In this document: piece after piece, positions 2,688-12,257 of the stretch
Layout: every line of letters begins with the position of its first letter
Position numbering within the stretch: position 1 is the stretch's first letter
Assembly (NCBI RefSeq): GCF_046105845.1
Contig: NZ_CP151004.1
From: Escherichia coli
Lineage (GTDB): Bacteria > Pseudomonadota > Gammaproteobacteria > Enterobacterales > Enterobacteriaceae
DNA: 64,000 nt
Direction: 5' to 3' (one strand)
Made by a program: the position numbers and the translations under genes
Notes under the pieces: model-generated
Database searches by the model: none
Told to the model about the DNA's origin: nothing
The model's input: the letters and a program-made list of their open reading frames with translations, nothing else

Positions 2688-3507
2688 TAAGTTAGCTGAT
2701 TACAGGCCTCAACTGGAGGTCGTGGAGCATCGCGTGGCAGAACTCGAAGATGGCTACACTCGGACTGCAAACACACTGTTAGAAGCCGCCATGCTTTCTG
2801 GGCTTACTCTACATCAGTTACTGATTGTTATGGCTGTGTGGCGCAAGACATACGGTTACAACAAAAAAATAGATTGGATCGGAAACGAACAGTTCGCTGA
2901 ACTCACTGGCATGGCACCAACCAAATGTTCTACCGCCAAAAACGAGCTTATCAGAATGGGAGTTCTCATTCAGGTGGGGCGTCAAGTTGGTATGAATACA
3001 AACATTTCCGAGTGGAAAACGAAAGTTAACGGATTCGGTAAAACATTTACCAATTCGGTAAAACAAACCTTCACCAAATCGGTAAAAAGCAATTTACCGA
3101 ATCAGTCAAACACAAAAGACAATATACAAAAGACAATAAATACAAATACCCCCTTACCCCCTAACGGGGGCGGCGATGGGCAGGTTAAACCTGAACGTCG
3201 CAAGGCAGAACGAATCGACTATGAATCCTTCCTGAACGCCTACAACACCGAAGTCGGTGACAGACTGCCACACGCTGTTGCGGTCAACGAGAAACGCAAA
3301 CGCCGCCTGAAGAAAATCATCCCGCAACTGAAAACGCCAAACGTGGACGGTTTCAGAGCGTATGTCAGGGCGTTTGTACATCAGGCCAAGCCGTTTTACT
3401 TCGGAGACAACGACACTGGCTGGACGGCAGATTTTGATTACCTGCTGAGGGAAGATTCGTTAACGGGAGTACGGGAAGGGAAGTTTGCAGACAGGGGGAT
3501 TGCATGA
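2677..3507 (+). CDS. Replication initiation protein (lambda O / P22 gene 18-like)
   Basis: 276 aa; N-terminal domain [30 protein letters not shown] matches the O-protein DNA-binding fold; followed by helicase. Confidence 0.85.
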
Positions 3508-4880
3508 GACAGGATATCGAAGCGAGCGTTATCGGTGGCCTGCTGATTGGTGGATTAACACCAACCGCCAGCGACGTTCTGGCAACGCTGGAGCCGGAAG
3601 CGTTTTCAATTCCGCTCTACCGGAAAGCCTTCGAGGTTATCCGCAAGCAGGCGAGAAACAGAAACCTAATCGACGCGCTGATGGTTGCAGAGGCGTGCGG
3701 AGAGGAGCATTTCACGTCAATCCTGATGACCAGCAAGAACTGCCCGAGTGCCGCAAACCTGAAGGGATATGCTGGAATGGTCGCGGATAACTATCACCGC
3801 CGTCTGGTGCTGGAAATCATGGACGAAATGCGTGAACCAATTCAGAGCGGAACCATCGACGCATCGAGTCAGGCGATGGACGAGCTGGTAAAGCGTCTTT
3901 CAGCCATCAGAAAGCCACGTGACGAGGTAAAACCTGTACGGTTAGGGGAAATCATCACCGACTACACTGACACGCTTGACAGGCGTCTGAGGAACGGAGA
4001 AGAGTCAGATACCCTGAAGACCGGAATCGAAGAACTTGATGCCATCACCGGAGGGATGAACGCGGAAGACCTGGTGATAATCGCTGCTCGTCCTGGTATG
4101 GGGAAAACCGAGCTGGCGCTGAAGATTGCCGAAGGCGTTGCAAGCCGCGTTATTCCTGGTTCTGACGTCCGGCGCGGGGTATTGATTTTCTCAATGGAAA
4201 TGAGCGCATTGCAGATTGCAGAGCGAAGCATTGCCAACGCCGGGAGGATGTCGGTTAGCGTACTGCGAAATCCTGCATCGATGGATGACGAAGGCTGGGC
4301 GCGTGTTGCTAACGGCATGAGTCAGCTTGCAGATTTGGATGTATGGGTAGTCGATGCCTCGCGGTTATCGGTAGAAGAAATTCGCTCAATCGCAGAGCGG
4401 CACAAACAGGAAAATCCAAACCTGTCACTCATCATGGCGGATTATCTTGGCCTGATTGAGAAGCCGAAAGCAGACCGCAACGACCTCGCAATTGCTCACA
4501 TCTCAGGAAGCCTGAAGGCGATGGCGAAAGACCTGAAAACGCCTGTTATCTCCCTAAGTCAGCTTTCGCGCGATGTTGAGAAGCGACCAAACAAACGCCC
4601 GACAAACGCAGATTTGCGTGATTCAGGAAGCATTGAGCAGGACGCAGACTCAATCATCATGCTCTATCGGGAAGCGGTATATGACGAGAACAGTAGCGCC
4701 GCGCCATTTGCTGAAATCATCGTGACGAAAAACCGTTTTGGCTCACTTGGTACGGTTTACCAGCGGTTCTGTAACGGACACTTTGTTGCATGTGACCAGG
4801 ATGAAGCCAGACAGATTTGCACAGCATCAAATGCACCTGCTGCGCGTGGCAGACGATATGCACAAGGGGCGGACGTATGA
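3504..4880 (+). CDS. Replicative DNA helicase, DnaB family (P22 gene 12-like)
   Basis: 458 aa; Walker A GMGKTE and DnaB C-terminal motifs; overlaps O-like gene stop. Confidence 0.9.
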
Positions 4881-7051: not shown

Positions 7052-7236
7052 ACGCCACAATTCAAACGATACCAGAGCTTCTTATCCAGACACGAGGCAA
7101 TCAGACCGAAGTGGCAAGGATGCTTTCCTGCGCAAGAGGAACAGTGCTCAAGTACAACCGAGACAGCAAAGGCGAGCGTCATGTAATAGTTAACGGCGTC
7201 CTGATGGTCAAACAGGGCAAGAGGGGAAGACGATGA
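7048..7236 (+). CDS. ninH: NinH
   Basis: 62 aa ...GNQTEVARMLSCARGTVLKY..., resembles lambda NinH. Confidence 0.75.
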   Translation: MNATIQTIPELLIQTRGNQTEVARMLSCARGTVLKYNRDSKGERHVIVNGVLMVKQGKRGRR

Positions 7237-7856
7237 GACTCGAAAGCGTAGCTAAATTTCATTCGCCAAAAAGCCCGATGATGAGCGACTCACCACGGGC
7301 TACGGCTTCTGACTCTCTTTCCGGTACTGATGTGATGGCTGCTATGGGGATGGCACAATCACAGGCCGGATTCGGGATGGCTGCATTTTGCGGTAAGCAC
7401 GAACTCAGCCAGAACGACAAACAAAAGGCTATCAACTATCTGATGCAATTTGCACACAAGGTATCGGGGAAATACCGTGGTGTGGCAAAGCTCGAAGGAA
7501 ATACTAAGGCAAAGGTACTGCAAGTGCTCGCAATATTCGCTTATGCGGATTATTGCCGTAGTGCCGCGACGCCGGGTGCAAGATGCAGAGATTGCCACGG
7601 TACAGGCCGTGCGGTTGATATAGCCAAAACGGAGCAGTGGGGGAGAGTTGTTGAGAAAGAGTGCGGAAGATGCAAAGGTGTCGGCTATTCAAGAATGCCA
7701 GCAAGCGCCGCATATCGCGCTGTAACGATGCTAATCCCAAACCTTACCCAACCCACCTGGTCACGCACTGTTAAGCCGCTGTATGACGCTCTGGTGGTGC
7801 AATGCCACAAAGAAGAGTCAATCGCAGACAATATTTTGAATGCGGTCACACGTTAG
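7233..7856 (+). CDS. Q: Late-gene antiterminator Q (lambda-type)
   Basis: 207 aa, MRLESVAKFHSPKSPMMSDSPRATASD..., recalled as essentially lambda Q. Confidence 0.95.
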   Translation: MRLESVAKFHSPKSPMMSDSPRATASDSLSGTDVMAAMGMAQSQAGFGMAAFCGKHELSQNDKQKAINYLMQFAHKVSGKYRGVAKLEGNTKAKVLQVLAIFAYADYCRSAATPGARCRDCHGTGRAVDIAKTEQWGRVVEKECGRCKGVGYSRMPASAAYRAVTMLIPNLTQPTWSRTVKPLYDALVVQCHKEESIADNILNAVTR

Positions 7857-7898
7857 CAGTATGATTGCCACGGATGGCAACATATTAACGGCATGATA

Positions 7899-7940
7899 TT
7901 GACTTATTGAATAAAATTGGGTAAATTTGACTCAACGATG
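7899..7940 (+). promoter_or_regulatory. Late promoter pR' with qut region
   Basis: TTGACT (7899-7904), 17 nt spacer, TAAATT (7922-7927), as in lambda pR'. Confidence 0.75.
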
Positions 7941-7963
7941 GATAAATGCACTCGTTAAATAAA

Positions 7964-7992
7964 GCCCTGAGTTAATAGCTCGGGGCTTTTTG
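7964..7992 (+). terminator. Rho-independent terminator just downstream of pR' (candidate tR')
   Basis: Hairpin GCCCTGAGTTAATAGCTCGGGGC followed by TTTTT. Confidence 0.6.
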
Positions 7993-8134
7993 CGTTTTAA
8001 ACACGACCTTTCTGAAAGCACATCAAACCAAATACCAGACAGACAAAAATAATCACCTTATCCGCTGTGGCTACGGTGCGGTGTGCTTTGCATAAAAGAA
8101 AACCAGCTCAATGGCTGGCTTCGTGAAAGCGGGT

Positions 8135-8170
8135 GGCAAGAGGTTGCGCTAACAACCTCCTGCCGTTTTG
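8135..8170 (+). terminator. Second hairpin plus U-run in late leader
   Basis: 12-bp stem GGCAAGAGGTTG/CAACCTCCTGCC (one mismatch) followed by GTTTTG. Confidence 0.45.
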
Positions 8171-8289
8171 CCCGTGCATATCGGTCACGAACAAATCTGA
8201 TTACTAAACACAGTAGCCTGGATTTGTTCTATCAGTAACCGACCTTATTCCTAATTAAATAGAGCAAATCCCCTTATTGGGGGTAAGAC

Positions 8290-8613
8290 ATGAAGATGCC
8301 AGAAAAACATGACCTGTTAGCCGCCATTCTCGCGGCAAAGGAACAAGGCATCGGGGCAATCCTTGCGTTTGCAATGGCGTACCTTCGCGGCAGATATAAT
8401 GGCGGTGCGTTTACAAAAACAGTAATCGACGCAACGATGTGCGCCATTATCGCCTGGTTCATTCGTGACCTTCTCGACTTAGCAGGACTAAGTAGCAATC
8501 TCGCTTATATAACGAGCGTGTTCATCGGCTACATCGGTACTGACTCGATTGGTTCGCTTATCAAACGCTTCGCTGCTAAAAAAGCCGGAGTAGAAGATGG
8601 TGGAAATCAATAA
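8290..8613 (+). CDS. S: Holin S (class I, dual-start M1/M3)
   Basis: 107 aa [20 protein letters not shown]..., recalled as lambda S. Confidence 0.95.
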
Positions 8614-9073
8614 TCAACGTAAGGCGTTCCTCGATATGCTGGCGTGGTCAGAGGGAACAGATAACGGACGACAGAAAACCAGAAATCATGGTTATGACGT
8701 CATTGTTGGCGGAGAGCTATTCACTGATTACTCCGATCACCCTCGCAAACTTGTCACGCTAAATCCAAAACTCAAATCAACAGCAGCCGGGCGCTATCAG
8801 CTTCTTTCCCGTTGGTGGGATGCCTACCGTAAGCAGCTTGGCCTGAAAGACTTCTCTCCCAAAAGCCAGGACGCTGTTGCGCTGCAGCAGATTAAGGAAC
8901 GTGGCGCTTTGCCGATGATTGATCGCGGTGATATTCGTCAGGCTATCGACCGTTGCAGCAATATCTGGGCTTCACTGCCGGGCGCTGGCTATGGCCAGTT
9001 CGAGCATAAGGCTGACAGCCTGATTGCAAAATTCAAAGAAGTTGGCGGAACGGTCAGAGAGATTGAGGTATGA
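8597..9073 (+). CDS. R: Endolysin R (lytic transglycosylase)
   Basis: 158 aa [24 protein letters not shown]..., recalled as lambda R. Confidence 0.95.
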
Positions 9074-9537
9074 GCAGAGTAACCGCGATTATCTCAGCTC
9101 TGGTTATCTGCATCATCGTTTGCCTGTCATGGGCTGTTAATCATTACCGTGATAACGCCATCGCCTACAAAGAACAGCGTGATAAAAAAGTCAGTGAGCT
9201 GAAGCAGGCGACCGCCACCATTACTGACATGCAGCAACGCCAGCGTGCTGCTGATGCACTCGATGCTAAATACACGAAGGAGTTAGCTGATGCGAAAGCT
9301 GAAAATGATGCTCTTCGGCGCAAGCTTGATAATGGTGGCAGGGTGCTCGTCAAAGGAAAATGCCCTGTGCCATCCTCAGCCGAAACCTCCGGCGCCTCCG
9401 GCATGGGCAATGATGCCACCGTCGAACTCTCTCCAGTTGCTGGACGAAACGTTCTCGGTGTCCGGGACGGAATTATCCGCGACCAAACAGCACTGAGAAC
9501 GCTTCAGGAATACATCAGGACGCAATGCCTTCGATGA
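9070..9537 (+). CDS. Rz: Inner-membrane spanin Rz
   Basis: 155 aa, N-terminal TM helix then coiled coil; follows R. Confidence 0.9.
9290..9496 (+). CDS. Rz1: Outer-membrane lipoprotein spanin Rz1, embedded in +1 frame of Rz
   Basis: [21 protein letters not shown] lipobox, proline-rich; wholly inside Rz. Confidence 0.75.
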
Positions 9538-9711
9538 TAGCGATAATTTTACTCATCATCCTTCACATCTGGCTCTGTAGACAGGGTGGTGAACACTTCT
9601 GGAGTGAATCCAGATTAAACATCTCATTGCTGATGCTTGATATTGAGCATCTGGCGCGCGGTAAGGGGCTGCGTTGAGATAAGAGCCAGTCATTACAAAT
9701 ACCAGGATTTA

Positions 9712-9736
9712 GCCTCGCATTTGCGGGGCTTTTTTA
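9712..9736 (+). terminator. Rho-independent terminator after lysis cassette
   Basis: Hairpin GCCTCGCATTTGCGGGGC followed by TTTTTT. Confidence 0.6.
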
Positions 9737-9880
9737 CATCTGCAGTAAACCGCGCATCGCAGCGCGTAACAATCCCGAGTCTTTCAGAAAGCTGAGCCTG
9801 AGAACTGCCGTATATGGTGGCGACCATCTCGGGGCGGCTTTTCTGTGCGAACAGGCTCATCTTTCTAAAAGGTAAACGCT

Positions 9881-10366
9881 ATGAATAACTTTGTTGAAAT
9901 TACCTCAAGAATTGGTCGCATGTACCAAGATTTTCTTATAAGTGGAAAGGGGTCTGGCGACATCATAGAGGAAATTGACAAGCTAAGTGCAGAGCTGAGA
10001 AGGAATGGGTGTGTTAATTCTATCTTTTTTGAAACTTTGCTAAAGCAAGGCTTCATGTTTGACATGATTAATTACAACAAAGTCGCACCCAGTGCTTCGC
10101 AAAAATCATATGTGTACGTTCTGCATGCTGAAGATAGTGGGCTAACAAAAATAGGGTTTAGTCGCAGGGTTAATAAACGAATTTCAGAGATATCTCGCAT
10201 GAGTGGTGGGAAGCTAAATCTAATTGCAAAGATTCCGGCCGATAGAGAGCTTGAAACCAAATTGCACCAAAAATATTACAACTATAGGTCGCACGGGGAG
10301 TGGTTTAGTCTCAATCGTTGTCATTTGAAAGAGCTAAAAGAAATGCCTGGTAACGAACTGAAATAA
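9881..10366 (+). CDS. T5orf172 / GIY-YIG-like domain protein (161 aa), accessory gene
   Basis: C-terminal half has YVYVL...TKIGFS...R...E...EWF pattern typical of T5orf172 (GIY-YIG superfamily); AT-rich; flanked by terminators. Confidence 0.65.
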   Translation: MNNFVEITSRIGRMYQDFLISGKGSGDIIEEIDKLSAELRRNGCVNSIFFETLLKQGFMFDMINYNKVAPSASQKSYVYVLHAEDSGLTKIGFSRRVNKRISEISRMSGGKLNLIAKIPADRELETKLHQKYYNYRSHGEWFSLNRCHLKELKEMPGNELK

Positions 10367-10542
10367 TCCCCGGACTCACTAATTAACGGCAGTACAGCGA
10401 AACGACCCAAGCCAGTAAGTGGGGAAATAACACTGGCAGCCACTGAAAGATGAACCTCCTGCCTTATGGCAAAAAAGATTCTTTGTGGCGGCGGACTGAT
10501 GGAAGGACATCCTAATTTCAGCCAAACATTGAAGGAGTTGTT

Positions 10543-10614
10543 ATGTCAGCAGAAGGTTTCAATAACCCATCAAAATTCCGGGATGAGTGGGATAGCAGCG
10601 TAAAGAGTAAGTGA
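10543..10614 (+). CDS. Possible 23-aa small peptide (MSAEGFNNPSKFRDEWDSSVKSK)
   Basis: ATG preceded by AAGGAG at optimal spacing inside a 350-bp gap; too short to assess otherwise. Confidence 0.2.
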   Translation: MSAEGFNNPSKFRDEWDSSVKSK

Positions 10615-10719
10615 TGCCATCACAAAAGCCATTCCCTACAGAGTGGCTTTGATAATGGCTTATACCCTACACGGGATAACTTAACTGATATCCCTTTTAA
10701 CGGATAAACGGAGCCAACA

Positions 10720-10962
10720 ATGGCAGAGATTATTCCCATGACTGAAGAACAGAAATTCCAGTTAGAGATTTACAAACTGGTCATGAACCAGAACGCAGCC
10801 GCAGAAGAAGCATTTCAGTTCATTGGCACTGACGAACTGAAGCTTGAGCTATTCAAAATTCACTTCCAGTCAGGCGGCGCTAATTCAGATATCACGACCC
10901 GCACTATCGAAGCGGTGCGTAAATCGAAGGAAGCGTTAGACCTGTTCACTACCGGAGCATGA
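10720..10962 (+). CDS. Hypothetical acidic protein (80 aa), accessory gene
   Basis: ATG with GGAG RBS; helical acidic product; followed by an ORF starting 2 nt after its stop. Confidence 0.55.
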   Translation: MAEIIPMTEEQKFQLEIYKLVMNQNAAAEEAFQFIGTDELKLELFKIHFQSGGANSDITTRTIEAVRKSKEALDLFTTGA

Positions 10963-10963
10963 T

Positions 10964-11143
10964 GTGAGCCGCGTAATCAATTTGGGTAAGGAGAAGAAAT
11001 TCCCAATTACTCAAGAGCTATACGAGAGGCTGGAAAGCGTCATCCATGATTACGATGGTGAAATCAGTTTATGCGAGGCGATTGGTACACTCGAATTGCT
11101 GAAGCAGTCACTGATTGAAGGCGCGAAAGAGTCCTTAACCTGA
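10964..11143 (+). CDS. Hypothetical small protein (59 aa, GTG start) coupled to upstream gene
   Basis: GTG ORF found by eye (VSRVINLGKEKKFPITQELYERLESVIHDYDG...), ends before a terminator. Confidence 0.4.
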   Translation: MSRVINLGKEKKFPITQELYERLESVIHDYDGEISLCEAIGTLELLKQSLIEGAKESLT

Positions 11144-11168
11144 AATAACGATTAAGTGAGATGAATAT

Positions 11169-11194
11169 GGCAGCACTCAACATGCTGCCTTTTA
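11169..11194. terminator. Bidirectional rho-independent terminator between convergent small-gene pairs
   Basis: Hairpin GGCAGCACTCAACATGCTGCC with T-run on plus strand and A-run upstream. Confidence 0.55.
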
Positions 11195-11206
11195 TCGTTG
11201 ATTAGT

Positions 11207-11446
11207 TTAACCGCGAGCTTCACGACCGTTTTCGTCTTCAGGCACACGGAAACGCCAGTACTTGTCTGGCTTAACCCAAACGACATCATTGCCACTATCA
11301 ACTCTAAATGCATTTATAACTTTGGTTGAAAGTACTTGGTTGCCATCTGCATTTTCTTTCAGGTGCTGCTCATTACCTGTCTTTATCAGGTAATCGACAA
11401 CATCTTGTTGATAAAGGCATCTGTCAGTTACTAATGCGGACATCAT
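11207..11446 (-). CDS. Hypothetical protein (79 aa), accessory gene
   Basis: ORF 44 bp downstream of the DUF2158 gene on the same strand. Confidence 0.45.
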   Translation of the reverse strand: MMSALVTDRCLYQQDVVDYLIKTGNEQHLKENADGNQVLSTKVINAFRVDSGNDVVWVKPDKYWRFRVPEDENGREARG

Positions 11447-11490
11447 CCACTTTGTTATATCAGCAACTTTTAAATGAGACGCGCTTGGGC

Positions 11491-11703
11491 TTATGGCTTT
11501 GGGTTTGTGTCCGTTAAAGACTCTTCAGCAAAGTGTCCTTTCTCAAGTTTTTTCCCTGCAAACCATTGGCATGTGTATGTTCCAGTAAAAGAACCTCCGT
11601 ATTCGTGGATTTCGTATACAGACATCTCAGGACCGCCTGATTTCAAATATACGGAATCGCCAATTTTAAATAACGCTTTTCTTACAGTTGAAGATTTGCT
11701 CAT
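11491..11703 (-). CDS. DUF2158 (YodC-like) small protein (70 aa)
   Basis: FKIGDSVYLKSGGPEMSV...CQWF pattern typical of YodC/DUF2158; AAGGTG RBS upstream. Confidence 0.6.
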   Translation of the reverse strand: MSKSSTVRKALFKIGDSVYLKSGGPEMSVYEIHEYGGSFTGTYTCQWFAGKKLEKGHFAEESLTDTNPKP

Positions 11704-11729
11704 AACTAATCACCTTCATAAGAGAAAAC

Positions 11730-12257
11730 ATGGCACTCACCGACAAGCAAGAGATGTTCTGTCGCGAGTACCTCATCGATTTAAATGCCACGCAAGCGGC
11801 TATTCGGGCGGGGTACAGCGCAAAGACAGCTAACCGTACCGCATCCGAAAACCTGTCAAAACCTGACATCAAGTTAAGAATCTCCGAACTGAAAGCGCAA
11901 CGCAATGATCTTGTTGGTATTAATGCAGAATATGTACTTAACCGCCTTATTGAAATCGACCAGATGGATGTGCTCGACATTCTCCTGCAAAACGGTGAGT
12001 TAAAGCCCATTAAAGACTGGCCTAAGGTATGGCGCACAACGCTATCAGGAATGGATGTCGTGGAGATGGTATCCGCAGATAGTGCCGCACTTCTGAAGAA
12101 AATCAAATGGCCTGATAAGGTCAAAAACCTCGAACTTCTTGGTAAGCATGTTTCCGTTCAGGCATTTAAAGAACAAGCTTCTCACGAGCTAACCGGTAAA
12201 GACGGCGGCGCAATCCAGATTGAAACATCACCGATGAGCACTCTATTCGGAAAATGA
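11730..12257 (+). CDS. Terminase small subunit
   Basis: 175 aa; N-terminal HTH (DKQEMFCREYLIDLNATQAAIRAGYS); directly upstream of large terminase. Confidence 0.85.
   Translation: MALTDKQEMFCREYLIDLNATQAAIRAGYSAKTANRTASENLSKPDIKLRISELKAQRNDLVGINAEYVLNRLIEIDQMDVLDILLQNGELKPIKDWPKVWRTTLSGMDVVEMVSADSAALLKKIKWPDKVKNLELLGKHVSVQAFKEQASHELTGKDGGAIQIETSPMSTLFGK

Follow-up and report, generated by a model that had tools for sequence, protein, structure and literature searches.

What kind of gene occupies the interval between the lysis and DNA-packaging genes of a P22-like prophage, at a site where sister phages hold other genes, and what might it do there? The question is raised by a 161-amino-acid (aa) open reading frame (ORF) at positions 9881-10366 (+) of a 64,000-nucleotide (nt) stretch of Escherichia coli DNA (NCBI RefSeq assembly GCF_046105845.1, contig NZ_CP151004.1), which we call the window and which carries a P22-like (Lederbergvirus-type) prophage. 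A first-pass annotation, made from the sequence alone, had described a T5orf172 (GIY-YIG-like) gene bracketed by terminators and forming its own transcription unit, and had proposed that the product could be a nuclease-based exclusion factor, a regulator or a homing-endonuclease relic. We find a real, intact gene of the prophage, whose product is a member of the T5orf172/MUG113 family by every criterion that could be tested. Our preferred reading, held tentatively and at somewhat less than an even chance, is that the protein is an accessory endonuclease, made late in lytic growth, for conflict with other phages or mobile elements.

A two-domain protein of the T5orf172 family

The ORF exists as first described: it starts with ATG at 9881, ends with TAA at 10366 and is preceded, ~9 nt 5' of the start codon, by a Shine-Dalgarno-like AAGG. 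The ORF list, profile matches and phage comparisons describe a two-domain protein in which an HkbL-like three-helix bundle is followed by a T5orf172/MUG113 domain. Over its full length the protein matches phrog_4284, a family of unknown function (E 1.4e-75), and it is 100% identical to Salmonella phage epsilon34 gp68, to g341c gp64 and to a protein of phage NM-3. The gene is present in 57 of the 5426 complete E. coli genomes, always on the chromosome and in one copy; in 56 of these carriers the copy is full length and at least 99% identical, and RefSeq names the E. coli copies 'GIY-YIG nuclease family protein'. Because the protein is identical to phage proteins and so well kept among carriers, we regard the gene as real far beyond chance. 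Its GC content is 41%, and that of the lysis genes 48-50%. Comparison with a 62%-identical homologue gives a pN of 0.27 and a pS of 0.72, values to be read with the saturation of synonymous sites (pS 0.70-0.89), which makes a proper dN/dS not computable.

Decay of the gene occurs, yet it is rare. One of the 57 copies (L024 1501-2022, in E. coli VTB97584v) lost its C-terminus to an inserted head-spike-fibre gene, and in a metagenomic protein (P0005) a DUF2560 domain is fused to the first ~108 aa, implying that a deletion spans the right flank. The distribution is sporadic among close relatives at one site, covering epsilon34, g341c, NM-3 and the E. coli carriers. Public records have contained the protein since the sequencing of epsilon34 in 2008. 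Neither gene 68 nor gp68 is mentioned in the genome paper of that phage, and no study of the protein or of close relatives came up in a full-text literature search for 'T5orf172'.

The C-terminal domain (aa 77-154; 10109-10342, +) has a beta-beta-alpha-beta-alpha-beta-alpha order and is basic (pI 9.7). It matches Pfam MUG113 (PF13455, aa 90-154, E 7.5e-13) and T5orf172 (PF10544, aa 77-154, E 1.7e-9), as do all 110 nearest relatives, and a search of every representative protein yielded 5717 cluster representatives matching at E<=0.001; no NCBIfam model matches the 161-aa protein. Alignments of the 103-110 closest relatives, including Odn of the Vibrio phage ICP1, show that Y79 (codon 10115-10117), K90 (10148-10150), G92, R100 (10178-10180), E125 (10253-10255), H129 (10265-10267) and W141 are invariant. 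I91, R136, G139, E140 (10298-10300) and F142 are nearly so, E140 and F142 being kept in more than 98% of the sequences. The protein thus carries the whole motif set of the family (vY, K-I-G, R, E-x-x-L-H and G-E-W-F). Profiles, fold and residues agree with the initial placement of this domain in the T5orf172 branch of the GIY-YIG superfamily, and the motifs on which that placement relied (around Y79, K90-I91-G92, R100, E125, H129 and E140-W141-F142) are all present.

A structure search with the high-confidence model of the domain, which has a GIY-YIG-type alpha/beta core, returned GIY-YIG nucleases on top (SLX1, I-TevI), the best matches being to the branched-DNA nuclease SLX1. With the full-length model, a Foldseek search of the PDB had no match below E 0.3, and a family profile showed weak similarity to the Y...G...R segment of two GIY-YIG proteins, 1zg2 and T4 endonuclease II. 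The canonical GIY-YIG profile PF01541 does not match the protein, and matches only 2 of the 110 relatives at E<=0.001. The protein is therefore in the GIY-YIG superfamily, outside the canonical PF01541 family. It differs from the canonical members (I-TevI 1ln0, SLX1, UvrC, Eco29kI) in having K-I-G for Y-I-G and in the replacement of the C-terminal Asn by the invariant G-E-W-F; both replacements are normal for T5orf172 and constitute its signature.

Among T5orf172 nucleases, ICP1 Odn (Gp88) alone has been characterised biochemically; it cuts PLE origins and acts in conflict between elements (PMC8263062). The two proteins share 31% identity over only 58 aa, and the key residues correspond one to one: Y127, K138, G140, R148, E180, H184 and W199 of Odn align with Y79, K90, G92, R100, E125, H129 and W141 here. 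Odn E180, chosen for mutation since it aligns with I-TevI E75, is essential, the E180A change abolishing cleavage in vitro and in vivo (PMC8263062), and E125 falls in the same alignment column. The alignment of catalytic residues suggested at first pass therefore finds them intact, so the gene is not a degraded relic, and a decayed homing-endonuclease gene is an unlikely description of it. By analogy with Odn, the domain would cut DNA by Mg2+-dependent GIY-YIG chemistry involving Y79, R100 and E125, and the E125/E180 correspondence suggests a metal-dependent cleavage that would require E125. Both proteins are phage-encoded and place a targeting-type domain before a C-terminal T5orf172 domain. 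In contrast to the gene studied here, odn comes from a lytic Vibrio phage and is annotated with a promoter of its own, and its N-terminal domain is RepA_N-like, binds DNA and was borrowed from the PLE satellite, whereas here this position is held by the HkbL-like three-helix bundle.

This N-terminal domain (aa 1-68; 9881-10084, +) consists of three long helices (3-21, 25-41 and 47-68), is acidic (pI 5.2) and is modelled with an AlphaFold2 (AF2) pLDDT of 95. It had been described as an unrecognised domain of ~65 aa, which holds in that it is a separate domain and that the N-terminal ~70 aa have no Pfam or NCBIfam match, but it can be placed. The phrog_875 profile matches aa 2-60 (E 1.4e-6), HK620 HkbL matches phrog_4284 in the reverse direction (E 4.3e-6), and BLASTP aligns aa 5-59 with HkbL at 33% identity over 55 aa (E 9e-11). 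These matches indicate that the domain is homologous to the HkbL/phrog_875 family, a modestly new observation. Structure searches with the domain returned generic helical bundles only, and word-indexed homologue searches with the domain alone, or with a 13-sequence profile of it, found only a truncated copy of the same gene. A phmmer match of aa 17-56 to designer pentatricopeptide-repeat proteins in the PDB was discarded as an artefact, in which each repeat has an i-Evalue above 200 and the total sums eight identical repeats.

HkbL (85 aa) typifies the small stand-alone phage proteins of phrog_875, which include HK97 p61. These proteins (77-85 aa) are homologous to aa 5-59 of our protein and differ from it in what follows the bundle: a short, highly basic tail takes the place of the basic nuclease domain. 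We found HkbL-like genes in 57 phage records, among them HK620, HK97, HK022 and mEp, Stx and Klebsiella phages. In the cases inspected (HK620 hkbK-hkbL, HK97 p60-p61 and ORF56-ORF57 of Klebsiella phage RAH1) a KilA-N or 'antirepressor' gene lies directly upstream, abutting the HkbL-like gene or overlapping it by 4 nt. The stand-alone family occupies the same two locations as the fusion family, namely the slot after Rz and islands among tail genes, and has the same neighbours there. The domain is most likely an oligomerisation or partner-docking module and would not itself read DNA.

A replaceable slot within the late operon

The gene sits inside a late operon whose layout follows that of epsilon34. 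A Q-like late-gene antiterminator (7233-7856, +; tblastn 99% identity to epsilon34 gp62, 'antitermination protein') is followed by a homologue of the epsilon34 PR' promoter and qut site with a short first late ORF (7858-8171, +; blastn 82% to the epsilon34 segment in which PR' and qut are annotated). Then come the holin (8290-8613, +), lysozyme (8597-9073, +) and Rz (9070-9537, +, with Rz1 embedded at 9290-9496), assigned from the ORF list and by homology to the lysis genes of epsilon34, Sf6 and HK620. A 50-aa ORF of the Sf6 gp65/epsilon34 gp67 family (9525-9677, +; phrog_11822, E 2.4e-37), annotated in epsilon34, Sf6 and Sf101, completes this block. On the other side lie a DUF2560 gene of the HK620 hkbM family, the conserved downstream neighbour (10720-10962, +; phrog_571, E 2.3e-41, and annotations), a 59-aa ORF, two minus-strand genes and the terminase genes terS (start 11730) and terL (start 12254).

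Between the 50-aa ORF and the T5orf172 gene, the terminator scan found an intrinsic terminator at 9711-9736 (+) (AGCCTCGC-ATTT-GCGGGGCT followed by T6). The epsilon34 and HK106 records annotate a rho-independent terminator at the homologous site, and the element is kept in all eight aligned phages. It is followed by a structured leader of 144 nt (9737-9880, +), which phage comparisons show to be common to all occupants of the site: it is 98% identical in Sf101, where it precedes Rha, and 93% in HK620, where it precedes a KilA-N gene. In HK106 it is 84% identical, though the HK106 protein homologue is only 31% identical; the order of Rz, terminator and gene is also the same in this HK97-like phage. 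Within the leader lies another terminator-like hairpin, weaker than the terminator at 9711-9736 (hairpin 9807-9838, U-run 9839-9845). The leader folds more stably than shuffled sequences (z-score -2.8) and has a long helix ending just 5' of the ribosome-binding site. Its consensus structure shows little covariation, and an Rfam search of 9000-12000 gave nothing meaningful. A minus-strand ORF of 55 aa (9693-9860), vaguely helix-turn-helix (HTH)-like, overlaps both terminator and leader; it has no PHROG match, is not annotated in related phage records and is probably spurious.

The claim that the gene is bracketed by terminators holds for its upstream side. Downstream, there is no convincing plus-strand terminator between the TAA at 10366 and the next gene at 10720. 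We also found no sigma-70-like promoter scoring above 7/12 between the terminator at 9711-9736 and the ATG. Q-modified RNA polymerase starting at PR' reads through terminators in lambdoid phages. Since Q and PR'/qut lie upstream, no promoter was found and no terminator follows, we favour late-operon read-through over autonomous expression: the gene is part of the Q-antiterminated late operon, and its description as a separate transcription unit is not supported. Transcription would then occur late in lytic growth, by read-through of the terminator.

This arrangement bears on the exclusion factor suggested at first pass, that is, a 'moron' nuclease made in the lysogen and degrading incoming phage DNA. 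Neither the upstream promoter expected of a moron, sought with sigma-70 consensus models, nor the expected downstream terminator was found, and the highly structured leader is common to the Rha and KilA-N alleles. Moreover, PADLOC-DB contains no established defence system matching the protein, the only candidates being PDC-S57 (E 4e-4) and PDC-M64B (E 0.034), and there is no evident cognate immunity or modification partner. We consider this role very unlikely.

Position has also to be weighed for a structure-specific endonuclease that would trim branched replication or recombination intermediates around headful packaging, in the manner of T4 endonuclease VII or T7 endonuclease I. Such a role would be consistent with the structural similarity to SLX1, with the position of the gene, which in pac phages immediately precedes the packaging genes and in HK106 adjoins a packaging-associated HNH gene, and with the lack of a DNA-reading domain, which a non-sequence-specific enzyme does not need. 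Even so, it is the least probable of the explanations considered here.

Pairwise phage comparisons delimit the site with ORF precision. The cassette spans 9886-10363 (+): homology with Sf101 (Rha) and HK620 (the KilA-N gene hkbK plus hkbL) extends across terminator and leader as far as ATGAA (ending at 9885) and resumes at 10364 in Sf101 and NCTC9104, and at 10376-10386 in HK620, Huey, Sf6, HK97 and HK106. Behind the same terminator, leader and ATG, the slot thus holds Rha, KilA-N plus hkbL, or the T5orf172 fusion, with flanks that are 95-98% identical whatever the occupant. This ORF-precise three-way allelism is a modestly new observation. The conserved right flank (10364-10511, +; 95-97% identity to Sf101, HK620, Huey, Sf6, HK106, HK97 and NCTC9104) includes the last ~22 nt of rha of the Rha-carrying phages. 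The exact window sequence is absent from the complete E. coli genome collection, in which the closest match to the flanks is NCTC9104, a carrier of Rha. Leader variants assort independently of the occupant, as in E. coli E41, where an HK620-type leader precedes the T5orf172 gene.

Rha (Sf101 gp63, NCTC9104) and HK620 HkbK have the same slot, leader, ribosome site and start codon as our gene, but they are unrelated proteins, which combine a winged-helix Rha or KilA-N DNA-binding domain with an antirepressor-like C-terminal domain and have no nuclease domain. Those of HkbK (L004 981-1478) and Sf101 Rha (L003 983-1525) have related C-terminal domains (phrog_10441/'anti-repressor' phrog_20738) and different N-terminal DNA-binding domains, so the slot occupants are themselves domain-shuffled. 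A second, smaller variable slot follows at 10512-10640 (+): in all comparisons homology is lost at 10511/10516 and returns at 10615-10641. The window carries here a 23-codon remnant (10544-10615) that has a ribosome-binding site of its own; other carriers have a DUF551 gene, two small ORFs or a gene of the Gp49 family, which in phage Huey bears the label 'anti-CRISPR'. In the epsilon34 record, the DUF2560 gene is immediately preceded by a sequence annotated as 'similar to the N-terminus of ST64T orf118', which may correspond to the remnant.

A locus of this kind invites comparison with the T5orf172 genes proposed to be homing endonucleases in ICP1, T5-like and other phages, whose most frequent locations are the vicinity of terminase genes (35% of neighbourhoods) and the borders of genetic exchange (PMC10448857). 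A strict free-standing homing endonuclease would cut the allele that lacks it (Rha, KilA-N, the empty slot or a conserved neighbour) and spread by repair-mediated gene conversion. Our gene shares with the ICP1/T5-type genes the nuclease family, a shuffled modular architecture and a location near terminase, at a recombination boundary (PMC10448857): it stands at a mosaic junction, 1.3 kb before terS. Its nuclease domain has intact catalytic-type residues, and the order of an N-terminal targeting and a C-terminal T5orf172 domain is that of Odn and the ICP1 homing endonucleases. A ~1-kb block (9500-10511) is near-identical in the window, epsilon34 and E. coli 13KWH46, that is, between Salmonella phages and E. 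coli prophages, and is bounded by a strongly diverged Rz region.

Other observations fit homing poorly. Of the surveyed T5orf172 homing endonucleases, 87% carry CapR/DUF723/DUF4397 zinc-finger repeats, and their genes occur in several copies per genome (PMC10448857), CapR matching only the DNA-binding domain of these enzymes. In contrast, the 161-aa protein has no zinc-finger repeats, HTH or other DNA-binding domain, and its gene is single-copy in every genome. Its slot holds functional alternative genes instead of being a presence/absence site, and the break points at 9885, 10364 and 10511 are discrete and identical in all genomes examined. Mismatches in the left flank (385 bp) number ~6 between carriers and 5-6 between a carrier and a Rha phage; in the right flank (148 bp) the figures are ~2-3 and 5-6, respectively. 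A co-conversion gradient, sought in a small sample of nine loci, was not found there. The discrete shared boundaries and similar flank mismatches therefore give no specific support for cleavage-driven co-conversion, and the pattern looks like ordinary lambdoid module exchange via conserved flanks. As far as such comparisons can tell, the gene lacks two of the testable hallmarks of homing endonucleases, the DNA-reading domain and the co-conversion signature, and we consider strict homing unlikely.

Neighbours of the wider family

Two-domain homologues that are 27-62% identical to our protein all occur in phage contexts (11 in total, including the window). Six of the 11 occupy the slot after lysis and before terminase (the window/epsilon34 group, L007, L013, HK106, L026 and possibly L028). 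Another two lie in islands between tail-assembly-chaperone and tape-measure genes, together with Arc-like repressors and Bro-N, Rha or KilA-N genes. One of these (L010) has the order Arc, Arc, Bro-N, 72-aa ORF, pRha, T5orf172-family gene and superinfection-immunity gene, the T5orf172-family gene overlapping the pRha stop by ATGA; in the other (L009) the T5orf172-family gene is followed by KilA-N/P63C, Arc, Arc and Bro-N. In two further contexts, L029 and L031, the neighbour is an Ant-type Bro-N gene, with overlapping start and stop in L031, and in the last (L006) the gene stands beside a giant DarB-like protein. In L026, the lysis genes and the T5orf172-family gene are separated by a HicA/HicB toxin-antitoxin pair (3018-3652, -) on the opposite strand, a further example of the post-lysis junction collecting accessory genes.

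In summary, an antirepressor-type gene (Bro-N, KilA-N or Rha) is directly adjacent in 4 of the 11 contexts, and a further 5-6 contexts occupy the slot where P22-like and HK97-like phages may carry Rha or KilA-N instead. This pattern agrees with earlier literature, in which T5orf172 co-occurs with Bro-N and KilA-N domains. It also bears on the regulator suggested at first pass, which would be a non-catalytic DNA- or protein-binding member of the antirepressor class, functionally equivalent to Rha/KilA-N. The ORF-for-ORF swap with these genes behind the same leader and ATG points in that direction, as does the co-operonic arrangement with Bro-N and Rha antirepressor-like genes under Arc-like repressors (L010, L009). 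In the literature, T5orf172 was first noticed as a partner of Bro-N/KilA-N, with DNA binding predicted by association, and I-TevI doubles as a repressor. However, all the family-invariant residues are still present in the protein, among them the glutamate that Odn requires for cleavage, and a shared slot does not imply a shared function, the neighbouring slot holding unrelated genes. We judge a purely regulatory role distinctly unlikely.

The same associations lead to a more specific proposal for the N-terminal domain, which we regard as quite doubtful: the HkbL-like bundle could be an adaptor docking an effector module, which is the nuclease in our protein and just a basic tail in others, onto Bro-N/KilA-N/Rha proteins that would supply DNA targeting in trans. 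If true, these widespread lambdoid accessory genes would form a split, mix-and-match system of targeting and nuclease components for phage-versus-phage warfare, and the long-unexplained Rha/KilA-N/T5orf172 network would receive its first mechanistic role.

The accessory-endonuclease reading and its significance

Conflict with co-resident or co-infecting phages and mobile elements, within the Bro-N/KilA-N/Rha 'antirepressor-type' accessory network, is the use that we propose for an accessory endonuclease made late in lytic growth. Such a role has been shown for Odn and proposed for T5orf172 homing endonucleases (PMC10448857). Several points weigh against this proposal. The cleavage chemistry is extrapolated from one characterised enzyme, Odn; the canonical second Tyr and Asn positions are taken by K90 and E140; and a purely DNA-binding role would likewise keep conserved residues. 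The protein has no recognisable DNA-binding domain, its N-terminal domain being acidic and structurally generic, and a search of the window for a KilA-N or Rha partner turned up none beside the gene, only a Bro-N Ant gene far away (26760-27704). Finally, the promoter scans used sigma-70 consensus models only, and with this scope the gene may also be expressed in the lysogen.

The Ant gene just mentioned encodes a 314-aa Bro-N antirepressor (Ant-like) within an immI-like region (26250-27704). Two small ORFs before it (26254-26505, -, and 26533-26757, +) may be Mnt/Arc-like candidates, and the 779-aa ORF after it (27805-30144) is probably the tailspike. The two minus-strand genes between the small ORFs of the late operon and terS (11207-11446, -, and 11491-11703, -) are antisense to the operon. 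Their NCTC9104 homologues are annotated as members of the DUF6953 and YodC families (phrog_10782 and phrog_3261), a plus-strand terminator-like hairpin lies just upstream of them (11169-11189), and they may be a moron pair. The only tRNA gene of the window, tRNA-Arg(CCT) (33018-33092, -), may mark the attachment site or end of the prophage; argW is an integration site used by Sf6-type phages.

The T5orf172 gene is of an ordinary kind, one of several interchangeable accessory genes between the lysis and DNA-packaging genes, and if it encodes merely another accessory nuclease, its recognition would still improve the annotation of ~1% of E. coli genomes. Proteins of the T5orf172 type abound, and the few that have been studied all come from Vibrio phage ICP1; the present gene offers a tractable E. 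coli/Salmonella example in the classic phages epsilon34 and HK106. Its near-isogenic natural alternatives (Rha, and KilA-N plus HkbL) in an ORF-precise slot are convenient for competition and homing experiments. The link between the N-terminal domain and HkbL, together with the repeated adjacency of antirepressor-type genes, provides a testable handle on the Bro-N/KilA-N/Rha/T5orf172 network of temperate phages.

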